This document shows positions 60,910-64,000 of a stretch of 64,000 nucleotides of DNA, piece by piece (position 1 is the stretch's first letter; each line of letters begins with the position of its first letter). The notes under the pieces are model-generated. The model did not search any database. It saw only the letters and a program-made list of their open reading frames with translations, and was not told where the DNA came from. The translations under genes were made by a program, and so were the position numbers. Source of the stretch: Escherichia coli (GTDB lineage: Bacteria; Pseudomonadota; Gammaproteobacteria; Enterobacterales; Enterobacteriaceae); assembly GCF_003334255.1 (NCBI RefSeq), contig NZ_QOWU01000011.1. One strand, 5' to 3'.

Positions 60910-61368
60910 TATCAGTTGTGGATGGTTCAAAATTGCTACAATTTTGAACCATTCCATTTTTCATAATATTCATTTGTTATTATTCCACCCTATCACTTCT
61001 CTCGTCATATCCTAGTATTATCAGTTAGTTAAACACACAAAGAGATCTGAACATCTTAAATAAGACTATTTAAGATGCATAACTTAGATTCGCAAGATAT
61101 CTTCTGGTCATTCAAAAACAATTTGCGATATAGATATTCTTATACCATGAGATAGTTATCTGGACCGCTCTCAACCATGCAAGATTAAATCAGTGAAACA
61201 TAATCATATTTGATAACGAGAAATGCATTTTTAAATGCCTTACTCAGAATTATAGCAAATACAGATTAATCGCAATTTTTCCCGGCAAAATTACAAAATC
61301 ATGGTGTATTGACATCATCAATAACCAATGAAATTATGCAATTATATACGGATAGGGAGGTTCTTAAC

Positions 61369-62001
61369 ATGGGGCTTTGTAGTCGTTATAAAAGTCTTAC
61401 ATGCAATAGTTGCTCAATGCATTGCCAAATAATGCCAGAAGAGTCACCGCGTTTGCAGTATTGCGCAAACTCGTGTTTTTGTATGTGGCCCGAAGAAAGT
61501 TCATATTTTAATCGTGGTGTGGTAGAAGGTATCTTAACAAAAAACCACAATGCGAGATTAAGCGGATATATTTTTGTCGATTTTTCAGTAAGTTTTTTAC
61601 GTCTATTCCTTGAAAAAGACTGGATTGACTATCTTGCAAGTACTGACATGGGGATTGTTTTAGTCAGCGACCGCAATATGCAATCGTTAGCTAATTACTG
61701 GCGAAAACACAACTCAGCAATATCTGCTGTCATATATAATGATGATGGTCTTGATGTTGCCAATGAAAAGATCAGACAACTATTTATTGGTCGTTATTTA
61801 TCATTTACCAGAGGTAACACATTAACTCAGATGGAATTCACCATAATGGGGTATATGGTTTCTGGTTATAATCCATATCAGATTGCTGAAGTTCTGGATA
61901 TGGATATCCGTAGCATCTACGCGTACAAGCAACGAATCGAAAAGAGAATGGGTGGTAAAATAAACGAATTATTTATTCGTTCACATTCGGTCCAACATTG
62001 A
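61369..62001 (+). CDS. yqeH: LuxR/GerE-type HTH regulator (ETT2-associated)
   Basis: 210-aa ORF from ATG 61369 behind GGGAGG; C-terminal LuxR-type HTH (LTQMEFTIMGYMVSGYNPYQIAEVL); AT-rich. Confidence 0.75.
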   Translation: MGLCSRYKSLTCNSCSMHCQIMPEESPRLQYCANSCFCMWPEESSYFNRGVVEGILTKNHNARLSGYIFVDFSVSFLRLFLEKDWIDYLASTDMGIVLVSDRNMQSLANYWRKHNSAISAVIYNDDGLDVANEKIRQLFIGRYLSFTRGNTLTQMEFTIMGYMVSGYNPYQIAEVLDMDIRSIYAYKQRIEKRMGGKINELFIRSHSVQH

Positions 62002-62334
62002 TACTCAACGACCAGCCAGAATCATACTCTGTTTATACGGGCATTTATTGAAATGTCCGTATTTTATAAATAGGCCGTCCCCTCAAGAGTAAACACCATA
62101 GTATTTAAAACCATCACACGAAAAATTCAGAAGCATTACGAAATATGAATTTACAAACAATAGTGGCATAAATGTTAACCATGTTAATTTACGTAAAGTT
62201 TTACGTTGCAACATTAAAGCCTCATTTCAATCATCATGATAAATATAAAATTAATATATATTTATGCCGTAAATACCAATATACTTAGCAAACTATGTGA
62301 TCTCCATTTCGATTGATTTAGTGTTTATTGACGT

Positions 62335-63144
62335 ATGTACTGGATTATTAACGATAATATCGAGTTCTGGCCTGAGCACCGAAAATTAATATCGGTACAT
62401 AACGCCGATCTTAACGTCGTTCTGACAACGCCAGCCAGTCGATGTTTATCACTTCTACTTGAAGCTTTTCCTGATGTGGTTGCACAACAAGATTTTTTCA
62501 CCAGAGTCTGGGAAGAAGAAGGTATGCGTGTGCCTACTAACACGTTATATCAGAACATATCCATTATCAGACGCGGATTTCGCGCTGTTGGTGATACTAC
62601 CCACTCGCTAATTGCAACCGTGCCGAGAAGAGGATTCAAGATCCATAATGACATTAACATACAAAATCATGTAATAAACTCGTCAACAGACGCACATACA
62701 CACAATGCCCCACCTGCCATAAAAGTTAATGCGGGATACAAAGAGAGCATTGGTGGCGCAAAGAATTTCAATAACAAAATCCTCAAACATATAAAAAGTC
62801 ATCTAATTATGTTGAGCGCATTTGTCATAGGCGCATATTCTGCATATTGGCTATGGAATAATAATCAACCGAAGCCATTTTTCAAGGATTACAAGACTGT
62901 TGCGGAAATTAATGGCTGCCATTTTAATGTAACAGAAGATACAATTGATGGGTTGAAAGAGTTCGATAAATATAAAACACGGATACTGGATTCGGGGATT
63001 AACTGTAAAAAACATCCGTGGTTATACTTCCCTCTTGCAAAATCCTCACCGGGGATGATTGTTATGGCATGCAATAAAAACTATAACCAACATGAAGTGG
63101 CAAACTGTTTAACCCTGTCTTACCGTGAGGTTAATCGTGATTGA
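62335..63144 (+). CDS. yqeI: ToxR/CadC-like winged-helix regulator with a predicted transmembrane segment (ETT2-associated)
   Basis: 269-aa ORF with N-terminal OmpR/PhoB-type DNA-binding domain and one hydrophobic segment (LIMLSAFVIGAYSAYWLW). Confidence 0.8.
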   Translation: MYWIINDNIEFWPEHRKLISVHNADLNVVLTTPASRCLSLLLEAFPDVVAQQDFFTRVWEEEGMRVPTNTLYQNISIIRRGFRAVGDTTHSLIATVPRRGFKIHNDINIQNHVINSSTDAHTHNAPPAIKVNAGYKESIGGAKNFNNKILKHIKSHLIMLSAFVIGAYSAYWLWNNNQPKPFFKDYKTVAEINGCHFNVTEDTIDGLKEFDKYKTRILDSGINCKKHPWLYFPLAKSSPGMIVMACNKNYNQHEVANCLTLSYREVNRD

Positions 63145-63619
63145 TTATAAAAAAAACTTATTATTTATTTTAGTTTTTATCAGTGAGTTTATTCTCTTCA
63201 CTGTCTATTCTTACACTGCAGAAAAAATGATATATAACGAAACATGCACTGCAAATTGGGTAATTTTTAATGACCAGGGACGAGCAAATCTTACCATCGA
63301 CTTTATGTATAACAAAAAAAATAAAACAGGAACTGTTGCGTTGAGTGGAACCTGGCAACAAGGTAACAGAGAAAGTAAATCAATACGGCGAAATATTGAA
63401 TACACATGGATTGAAAACTATGACACAGCCCATTTAACATCAAAGAAAGTTAATAAGTTTGAGATTATGGATCAAGTTGATGATGATAGACTTGCACAAC
63501 TTATTCCTGATTTTTATGTCTTTCCAGAAAAAAGTGTAAGCTATAATATACTAAAGCAAGGTAAGCATGCTTTTATTTTGAGCATTGGTAACAGAGCAAT
63601 AATGCATTGTGCAAGGTAA
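63125..63619 (+). CDS. yqeJ: Hypothetical protein with N-terminal hydrophobic segment (ETT2-associated)
   Basis: About 160-aa ORF overlapping the 3' end of yqeI by 20 nt; exact start uncertain; AT-rich. Confidence 0.6.
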   Translation: MRLIVIDYKKNLLFILVFISEFILFTVYSYTAEKMIYNETCTANWVIFNDQGRANLTIDFMYNKKNKTGTVALSGTWQQGNRESKSIRRNIEYTWIENYDTAHLTSKKVNKFEIMDQVDDDRLAQLIPDFYVFPEKSVSYNILKQGKHAFILSIGNRAIMHCAR

Positions 63620-63651
63620 ACTAAAATAGATAACAAAAAGATGGAACCTCG

Positions 63652-63732
63652 TTAATCATAAAACAATAAAATTAAATATTCTCGCAGTATATGGCAGTCT
63701 AAAGCATCAAAGATTTGATCAACATCTTTCAT
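63652..63732 (-). CDS. 26-codon small ORF with AAGGAG 9 nt upstream; possibly small protein YqeL
   Basis: Minus strand reads AAGGAG-N9-ATG then MKDVDQIFDALDCHILREYLILLFYD and TAA. The 26-aa length and location fit my memory of yqeL. Confidence 0.4.
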   Translation of the reverse strand: MKDVDQIFDALDCHILREYLILLFYD

Positions 63733-63938
63733 TTTAGACATCTCCTTGCAATGTAAAATATCATGTATCAACAACATCTGGTGCAAATCCATGAGTCGAA
63801 CTCGACATTCATCTTAGCTCGATTATTATTCCTTCGTACAGTCGATGTAAACAATACAGAAAGAGGATTATTAAGAACCAGTTTACTCAGTGAATCAATA
63901 GAGGAAAGGACTAACGTTTCTTTGGTAATGACTCCAAC

Positions 63939-64000
63939 TTATTGATAGTGTTTTATGTTCAGATAATGCCCGATGACTTTGTCATGCAGCTCCACCGATT
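63939..64000 (-). CDS. 3' end of a minus-strand ORF entering from beyond the window (possibly yqeK)
   Basis: Minus-strand frame open from the window edge, ending ...SVELHDKVIGHYLNIKHYQ then TAA at 63941-63939. Only 19 codons visible. Confidence 0.25.
   Translation of the reverse strand, partial: SVELHDKVIGHYLNIKHYQ

Follow-up and report, generated by a model that had tools for sequence, protein, structure and literature searches.

The AT-rich DNA that follows yqeG at the end of the analyzed Escherichia coli window (the whole stretch of 64,000 nt) is almost certainly the glyU-distal (left) end of the horizontally acquired ETT2 island, which occupies positions 61084-63923, encodes regulators and carries an IS1 insertion in yqeK. 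The island boundary, the low G+C content, the character of YqeI and YqeJ and the H-NS/StpA-dependent silencing have all been published already, and the IS1 insertion is private to this strain, at a site previously unrecorded. Over 63,923 nt the window differs from MG1655p by 16 substitutions and no indels, as expected of a K-12-like E. coli, and only two of these substitutions (61810 and 63186) fall within the island part, which corresponds to K-12 coordinates 2,987,251-2,990,090.

The abrupt shift to AT-rich DNA after yqeG, reported in the initial annotation, is real: G+C falls from 0.516 at positions 1-59430 to 0.349 at positions 60910-64000 (0.506 in the window as a whole), with an intermediate value of 0.431 for the yqeF-yqeG spacer and yqeG itself (59431-60909). 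The value of 0.349 is the minimum among all 3,091-bp intervals of the window (mean 0.510, SD 0.033; about -4.9 SD), and the best two-segment fit across 55-64 kb places the change point at 60893 (log-likelihood gain 69). Codon usage, proposed earlier as a check alongside G+C, steps in the same manner, GC3 being 0.332 in yqeH, 0.381 in yqeI and 0.267 in yqeJ (z = -5.6, -4.3 and -7.2, respectively) vs 0.553 +/- 0.040 in 38 long upstream ORFs. The long AT-rich intergenic spacers noted before were also found (459 bp at G+C 0.309 and 333 bp at G+C 0.306). As to the poor start contexts ascribed to these genes, the description fits yqeI only, which lacks a Shine-Dalgarno sequence, whereas yqeH possesses a strong one (AGGGAGG, 8 nt ahead of ATG) and yqeJ has GAGG 6 nt ahead of its GTG.

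The compositional step arises because foreign DNA of ~35% G+C abuts native DNA of ~51% G+C. Alignment to an island-free genome of ST131 (phylogroup B2), in which yqeG is joined to glyU with nothing between, locates the edge of the island at 61083/61084, 174 bp beyond the yqeG stop; the ST131 sequence matches again at a distance of 72 bp from the glyU 3' end, as placed in K-12-like genomes, and in the phylogroup B2 examples the match likewise ends at window position 61083. The island does start after yqeG, as had been proposed, but its edge defined by comparison is 61084 and not 60910. The step only seems to begin at the yqeG stop, because the 174-bp native spacer (60910-61083, G+C 0.299), which island-free genomes retain and which is collinear with the ST131 empty site up to 61083, is AT-rich as well. 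This ST131-conserved flank contains an intrinsic terminator-like hairpin of yqeG (60920-60954, plus strand; a 16-bp stem followed by a T-run). Neither a flanking direct repeat nor a duplicated tRNA fragment was found at the island edges, there is no integrase at the edge, and the repeats within 60700-64000 are confined to short AT-rich chance matches and the yqeG terminator.

Two other readings of the composition were considered. According to one, native DNA is locally AT-rich here owing to long regulatory spacers and to the amino acid bias of membrane proteins. Native DNA here can indeed be AT-rich, as the spacer beyond yqeG demonstrates, and the G+C of yqeG is merely 0.445, a value that stems from codon positions 1 and 2 (0.459 and 0.385) and not from position 3. 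However, the GC3 of yqeH, yqeI and yqeJ lies 4-7 SD under that of the other window genes, and the whole segment 61084-63923 (G+C ~0.35) is absent at exactly this site in ST131 and other genomes. This presence/absence polymorphism, together with GC3, has already refuted the native reading, to which we assign a vanishingly small probability. The other reading, also very improbable in our estimate though slightly less so, shifts the boundary further to the left and includes yqeG, or yqeF-yqeG, in ETT2, as drawn in some papers. It can appeal to the G+C dip, which begins already at about 59250 (0.43-0.45). Against it, the island-free ST131 genome carries both yqeF and yqeG with the same protein accession, at least 5,405 of 5,426 genomes cover at least 80% of positions 39000-63923, and the GC3 values of yqeF (0.485) and yqeG (0.490) are within 1.7 SD of native genes. 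The amino-acid permease gene yqeG (59680-60909, plus strand), annotated in all compared genomes including ST131, is consequently a core gene flanking the island, and its candidacy as an island gene was rejected on GC3 and conservation.

The identity of the foreign segment as the start of ETT2, which had been proposed in the initial annotation, is supported by annotated relatives, by the ST131 empty site and by the published description of ETT2 as a 29.9-kb island adjoining glyU with a G+C content of 36.9% (PMC11068852). The contrast between 0.349 and 0.516 in the window is close to the published one (36.9% vs ~50.8% for the chromosome), and no observation spoke against the identification. In annotated genomes that are 99.96-100% identical here, the gene order is yqeH-yqeI-yqeJ-yqeL-yqeK followed by ygeF/G/H, which bears out the names given earlier to yqeG, yqeH, yqeI and the small ORFs. 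All of the left-end genes yqeH, yqeI, yqeJ and yqeK are present, the last as its 3' 156 nt only. Among the 5,426 complete genomes of E. coli, 3,636 contain at least 80% of positions 59400-64000; ETT2 sits between core yqeG and the tRNA-Gly(CCC) gene glyU in most non-B2 E. coli. In strain H7, whose left end is near-identical to that of the window, epr/epa type III secretion genes follow downstream, between yqeG and the tRNA-Gly gene glyU, and several of its eprH-K/epaS-type genes are pseudogenes. The genes yqeH-yqeK are indeed island genes, but the earlier view of them as the beginning of the secretion system needs to be modified, since the left island end carries a regulatory module rather than the secretion apparatus. 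The secretion genes and glyU of the present strain are located beyond the window end (position 64000).

The first gene of the module, yqeH (61369-62001, plus strand), had been called LuxR-like, and its product does contain a GerE/LuxR-type helix-turn-helix (HTH) domain at the C-terminus (Pfam GerE, PF00196, residues 151-195, E = 6.6e-5) as well as a conserved N-terminal Cys cluster. Residues 31-202 of YqeH align with positions 3-179 of the 180-position EcpR model (NCBIfam, E = 1.7e-20). The protein scores 73.8 bits, well short of the equivalog cut-off of 300, so that YqeH should be regarded as a paralogue of EcpR (MatA) and not as EcpR itself. It is a regulator of the LuxR type, cytoplasmic and akin to EcpR/MatA.

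The second gene, yqeI (62335-63144, plus strand), encodes a ToxR/CadC-type regulator, as was proposed, with an N-terminal winged HTH (Pfam Trans_reg_C, residues 28-102, E about 4e-9); the best solved relative is the DNA-binding domain of Vibrio cholerae ToxR (PDB, E = 1.6e-7). Membrane tethering of the protein is predicted, the only hydrophobic stretch being located at approximately residues 149-174, with the best 19-mer at 1.35 on the Kyte-Doolittle scale vs the threshold of 1.6. The C-terminal part contains cysteines 195, 224, 246 and 258. The gene overlaps by 8 nt with yqeJ (63137-63619, plus strand), the product of which resembles ToxS and VtrC in its predicted structure, comprising an N-terminal transmembrane helix and an eight-stranded beta-barrel. 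VtrC and ToxS are the best fold matches (7-14% identity in structural alignments), although searches of Pfam, NCBIfam and PDB with the YqeJ sequence gave nothing significant and neither ToxS nor VtrC is detectably similar to YqeJ in sequence. YqeJ also possesses a conserved disulfide-type Cys pair (C37/C158). Its homologues P0126 (25% identity) and P0103 (42%) are each encoded directly after a Trans_reg_C gene, with overlaps of 11 and 8 nt, respectively, and these gene pairs stand in other genomic contexts, outside any type III secretion system. A published study (PMC9214523) reports for YqeI and YqeJ a co-component relationship like that of VtrA/VtrC, orthology to MarT/FidL of SPI-3 and complex formation between the periplasmic domains. 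The two proteins would act as a ToxR/ToxS-type pair consisting of a membrane-tethered winged-helix factor and a periplasmic beta-barrel partner; most likely, the YqeJ partner recognizes a small hydrophobic ligand and governs the activity of YqeI.

The remaining part of the segment lies on the minus strand. It comprises yqeL (63652-63732), a 26-aa ORF annotated in K-12 (b4683), whose product had no family match, and the 3' remnant of yqeK (63768-63923), codons 91-141 of 141, with coordinates taken from intact genomes and a translation corresponding to the C-terminus of YqeK; YqeK gave nothing significant against Pfam and NCBIfam. The remnant is joined at 63923/63924, after yqeK codon 90, to the right end of an IS1 element (63924-64000, minus strand), which consists of the terminal inverted repeat GGTAATGACTCCAACTTATTGAT... 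and the 3' end of the transposase gene and runs off the window. The IS1 end in these final 77 nt was overlooked in the initial annotation. All 77 nt are identical to the ends of IS1A/IS1B in many records, as well as to the IS1A of strain G1/2; the orientation of the element was deduced by comparison with the IS1 copies of G1/2 and MIN9. The element landed in AT-rich DNA (0.32 G+C over +/-50 bp); a complete IS1 measures 768 bp, contains insAB' and is accompanied by a 9-bp target duplication. No complete E. coli genome among the 5,426 compared contained the yqeK/IS1 junction in one piece, and a search of metagenome contigs with the 48-nt junction gave no match. The insertion after codon 90 has inactivated yqeK in this strain.

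IS1 was encountered repeatedly in this part of the island. The 426-bp yqeK alone has been hit at 10 or more different positions, and in strain H7 an IS1 resides inside the yqeH-yqeI spacer. Approximately 79 of ~3,600 island-bearing complete genomes carry IS1 in the stretch between the end of yqeJ and ygeF vs ~7 expected under uniform placement, a rough comparison that takes no account of clonality (~42 records belong to a single ST361 clone). Both orientations of IS1 occur, as a mirrored query revealed. An apparent orientation bias was dropped: the first query had found one orientation only, and the opposite one proved at least as common.

Whether the IS1 in yqeK marks a simple insertion or the edge of an IS1-adjacent deletion bears on how much of ETT2 this strain retains. 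In the latter case the visible 2.8 kb would be all that is left of the island and glyU might be gone, a scenario to which we give somewhat less than an even chance. Among the ~17 IS1 events inspected at this island end, eight were followed by deletion or replacement, with deletion reaching glyU in 2018-02-2CC/PSS-16, MIN9 and PD7, and other deletion or replacement cases represented by EEC_W5 (to ygeP/Q), JMF1, SW07096 (a class 1 integron), HCP4S3_I4, G1/2, G6/7 and G8. Moreover, no complete genomes are closer over positions 39000-63923 than G1/2, G6/7 and G8, and in them the yqeK IS1, 72 bp from the window site, abuts a truncated ygeV, while glyU, actS and xdhABC are deleted. On the other hand, the nine other inspected events are simple insertions with both target halves preserved, and the window site differs from that of G1/2, from which it follows that the insertion in the window is an independent event. 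IS1 recurs in this stretch, and IS1-adjacent deletion is one common route of erosion of the island. That the ~1.3-kb interval separating the yqeJ end from ygeF is a genuine IS1 hot spot, and IS1 landing in it the main route of ETT2 loss in phylogroup-A-type E. coli, is a bolder proposition, which we consider rather unlikely. If true, this route would sometimes also remove glyU, actS and xdhABC, and its interesting aspect would be a possible connection with hairpin DNA bound by H-NS.

The K-12 literature describes the corresponding DNA as a target of H-NS. The genes yqeH/yqeI are listed among H-NS-associated promoter islands (Panyukov & Ozoline 2013, Table 1; PMC3661553), the published element being the yqeH-yqeI spacer (62002-62334, G+C 0.306); the K-12 yqeG-ygeI fragment serves as model H-NS "CHIN" DNA, and ygeH is up ~150-fold in an hns stpA double mutant (PMC12460168). 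The K-12 counterpart, nearly identical to the segment in the window, thus appears to be bound and silenced by H-NS/StpA. Promoter-like sites are ~5.7-fold denser in the island than in the native flank, but they are in no excess over composition-matched shuffles (15 vs 14.7 +/- 3.7), so that their density shows nothing beyond AT-richness. No RNA family of Rfam was found within 59-64 kb.

The present analysis matters little beyond correct annotation. It places the island edge to the base (61083/61084), and it draws attention to the left-end regulators, which can influence the remainder of the genome even with a dead secretion system. Mutant phenotypes published for yqeH and yqeI in APEC support regulator action in the absence of the secretion system. 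K-12 is no safe guide to whether the secretion genes of this strain are intact, since comparable IS1 events in other strains removed these genes in half of the cases.

Compared with known systems, the segment shares with ETT2 its site, the gene order yqeH-yqeI-yqeJ-yqeL-yqeK and the low G+C (~35% here vs the published 36.9%), and differs in that yqeK is broken by IS1 at a site seen in 0 of 5,426 complete genomes. YqeH resembles the LuxR-type protein EcpR (MatA), which regulates the operon for the E. coli common pilus, over nearly the whole model and in its GerE HTH, and differs from it by an additional N-terminal Cys-rich segment conserved in the YqeH family. The similarity to ToxR/ToxS and VtrA/VtrC consists in the N-terminal winged HTH of YqeI and in its co-oriented partner, overlapping by 8 nt, with a transmembrane helix and a lipocalin-like beta-barrel, the pair being likewise kept together in distant homologues; YqeJ differs in sequence, and its C37/C158 pair is typical of the FidL/YqeJ branch. 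Systems of this class are characterized by a heterodimer of periplasmic domains and by the sensing of a ligand (bile salt). Orthology to MarT/FidL of Salmonella SPI-3 rests on the published work (PMC9214523). The segment is AT-rich foreign DNA, like the horizontally transferred DNA silenced by H-NS/StpA (CHINs/CHIDs), the occupancy being known from K-12. Finally, the element in yqeK, of which only one end lies within the window, is identical to IS1A/IS1B in its terminal repeat and adjacent sequence, and both simple insertion and IS1-adjacent deletion are found at this locus in related genomes.

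The window extends from queF/ppnN to yqeK of an E. coli chromosome of K-12-like sequence: its alignment with the K-12-type strain MG1655p over 63,923 nt contains no indels and 16 substitutions, of which two (61810 and 63186) fall in the AT-rich part. According to the annotation transferred from K-12 and relatives, its right end comprises yqeF (58244-59425, minus strand), yqeG (59680-60909, plus), yqeH (61369-62001, plus), yqeI (62335-63144, plus), yqeJ (63137-63619, plus), yqeL (63652-63732, minus) and yqeK, which would span 63768-64193 on the minus strand if whole. In K-12 the order continues with ygeF, ygeG, ygeH, ygeI, pbl, the pseudogenes ygeK/L/N/O, IS2, ygeP, ygeQ and glyU, and E. 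coli strain H7, with an almost identical left end, carries secretion genes of the eprH-K and epaS/R types downstream, several of which are pseudogenes. Both gene orders corroborate the assignment of the locus to ETT2, the type III secretion system 2 island (29.9 kb, 36.9% G+C, adjoining glyU and subject to widespread attrition; PMC11068852). The initial annotation of this region is thus real and correctly interpreted, and as a whole represents established knowledge on a textbook locus; our additions are the base-exact island edge, a separate check on the YqeJ fold and on the gene pairing, a correction concerning start contexts, and a strain-specific IS1 with a small survey.

The sharp AT-rich shift proposed after yqeG was borne out by sliding-window G+C and codon usage analyses. 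The G+C content, 0.506 for the whole window, is 0.516 in 1-59430, 0.431 in the yqeF-yqeG spacer plus yqeG (59431-60909) and 0.349 in 60910-64000, the last value being the minimum among all 3,091-bp windows (mean 0.510, SD 0.033). Splitting 55-64 kb into two segments gave the best change point at 60893, at most 17 nt from the yqeG stop codon. The GC3 values of yqeH (0.332), yqeI (0.381) and yqeJ (0.267), as against 0.553 ± 0.040 for 38 long upstream ORFs, agree with this step and rule out its being a by-product of spacers or amino-acid usage. yqeG (0.490) and yqeF (0.485) have GC3 within the native range, and the total G+C of yqeG is moderately low owing to the first two codon positions, a pattern expected of membrane proteins. 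Long AT-rich spacers were likewise recovered (459 bp at 0.309 and 333 bp at 0.306 G+C), and the claim of poor start contexts holds for yqeI only: the yqeH ATG is preceded by AGGGAGG 8 nt upstream, and the yqeJ GTG by GAGG 6 nt upstream. Other low-G+C patches (0.39-0.41) occur at 7250-8750 and 55750-56500, which the K-12 map places at the fucP-fucA divergent spacer region and the araE-kduD spacer.

The island edge itself was located with an ST131 genome of phylogroup B2 carrying the empty site, in which yqeG is followed by 174 bp common with the window, 142 bp and tRNA-Gly(CCC). Homology to the window stops at 61083, and K-12-like genomes match the ST131 sequence again at a distance of 72 bp from the glyU 3' end; the island therefore starts at 61084 (K-12 coordinate 2,987,251). 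Its K-12-type remnant spans about 11.7 kb. The change point lies 190 bp left of this edge because the native 174-bp spacer, which harbors the yqeG terminator hairpin (60920-60954), itself has a G+C content of 0.299. No flanking direct repeat was found at either edge. At least 80% of 59400-64000 is present in 3,636 of the 5,426 complete E. coli genomes, and those below this level include B2 strains whose match ends at the island edge. Foreign composition and presence/absence polymorphism at a fixed site beside a tRNA gene are thereby shown.

The K-12 yqeG-ygeI fragment is a model DNA folded by H-NS into 'chromosomal hairpins', and double deletion of hns and stpA raises ygeH about 150-fold (PMC12460168). 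The H-NS-associated 'promoter islands' include the spacer between yqeH and yqeI (PMC3661553). By analogy with K-12, H-NS and StpA would silence the segment in the window strain too. Our promoter scan detected 15 promoter-like sites in the 3.1 kb AT-rich part versus 8 in 9.4 kb of native flank; composition-matched shuffles yielded 14.7 ± 3.7 sites, equal to the observed number, so that AT-richness alone accounts for the density.

Elsewhere in the window, the small RNAs GcvB (16749-16954), OmrA/OmrB (49935-50218) and ES036 (19970-20012) occupy their expected K-12 positions with nothing unusual. The metZWV locus (21440-21516) contains only one initiator tRNA-Met gene instead of the three in tandem (metZ, metW, metV) that NC_000913.3, the K-12 reference, carries. 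MG1655p and several other K-12 assemblies align with the window gap-free here, and the single copy reflects either real copy-number variation or assembly collapse of the 110-bp tandem repeat.

Overlooked in the initial annotation was the right end of an IS1 from 63924 (GGTAATGACTCCAACTTATTGATAG...), inserted exactly after yqeK codon 90 in surroundings of 0.32 G+C; all 77 remaining bases (63924-64000) are identical to IS1A/IS1B. The junction was found in one piece in none of the 5,426 complete E. coli genomes and in no metagenome contig. The window stops exactly 77 nt into IS1; short-read contigs typically reach into a repeat by one k-mer, for which 77 is a common length. We speculate that the window end is a draft contig end, which would explain the absence of the junction from complete genomes.

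In other genomes IS1 leaves yqeK remnants of 75, 165, 186, 225, 228, 324, 339 and ~396 nt, or, in the other orientation, ~348 and ~374 nt (estimated from match spans); it also occupies the yqeJ-yqeL, yqeK-ygeF and yqeH-yqeI spacers and ygeF. Insertions of either orientation are represented in this stretch. The inspected events comprise nine simple insertions and eight followed by deletion or replacement, reaching to glyU, to ygeP/Q, or into ygeV, thereby removing glyU, actS and xdhABC, or bringing in a class 1 integron. The complete genomes closest over 39000-63923 (G1/2, G6/7 and G8) all belong to the deletion class, their IS1 sitting 72 bp from that of the window. In these commensal strains (G1/2: locus L012, 20169-21878) the yqeK IS1 abuts a truncated ygeV; deleted are the remainder of ETT2, actS, xdhABC and glyU, the only tRNA-Gly(CCC) gene of the locus. 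In strain SW07096 (locus L017, 3031-5592) a truncated sulP-family gene, a DUF3330 gene and intI1 come after the yqeK IS1B, and thus a class 1 integron region was brought into the ETT2 left end. The carbapenemase-associated ST361 lineage (locus L031, 3108-3805, and ~40 related records) has one common IS1A insertion between yqeJ and yqeL, opposite in orientation to the window's IS1, which could serve as a clone marker. This small survey suggests that IS1 recurrently hits and erodes the ETT2 left end. Since 8 of 17 inspected events, the closest genomes included, involve deletion or replacement, the secretion genes of the window strain should not be assumed; an adjacent deletion there has, in our estimate, slightly less than an even chance.

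The regulator-type character ascribed to yqeH (LuxR-like) and yqeI (ToxR/CadC-like) was confirmed by domain searches; no match was obtained there for YqeK (141 aa) and YqeL (26 aa). Mutants of both regulators in avian pathogenic strains (APEC) are reported to lose motility, biofilm formation or adhesion (PMC9014576, PMC7552227). YqeH (210 aa), which would act as a soluble regulator once expressed, has a C-terminal GerE/LuxR helix-turn-helix and aligns end-to-end with the EcpR/MatA model at 73.8 bits, far under the equivalog cut-off of 300; it is therefore a paralogue, and its identity with EcpR was rejected. The APEC YqeH paper contains no mention of EcpR or MatA. The first 38 residues of YqeH (61369-61482) contain seven Cys, of which C12, C15, C19, C32 and C36 (C-x2-C-x3-C-x12-C-x3-C) are shared by every full-length homologue with an identity of 49% or more. 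This segment, an extension lying outside the EcpR-aligned part and lacking a counterpart in EcpR/MatA, may sense metals or redox state.

YqeI (269 aa) possesses an N-terminal Trans_reg_C winged helix, with the Vibrio cholerae ToxR DNA-binding domain as the best solved relative (E 1.6e-7), followed by CadC. Its C-terminal part contains four Cys, and a single moderately hydrophobic segment spans approximately residues 149-174. The yqeJ gene overlaps yqeI by 8 nt, and sequence searches of its product (160 aa) against Pfam, NCBIfam and PDB gave no match. An exhaustive HMMER search with YqeJ gave 97 cluster representatives, mostly of 150-165 aa; 63 of these, once aligned, all share C37, and at least 90% of them share C158. 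The AlphaFold model built from this alignment is confident (pLDDT 93.9) and consists of eight strands preceded by a helix at the N-terminus (residues 4-30). The genes of two distant homologues, at 25% and 42% identity, each lie directly 3' of a Trans_reg_C gene, with overlaps of 11 and 8 nt, in surroundings devoid of secretion genes. YqeI/YqeJ are said to be orthologous to MarT/FidL of Salmonella SPI-3, the periplasmic domains forming a complex (PMC9214523). When expressed, the pair would let a signal in the periplasm control transcription. The predicted fold and the gene pairing independently support the earlier published assignment of YqeI/YqeJ to co-component cassettes of the ToxR/ToxS - VtrA/VtrC type (PMC9214523).
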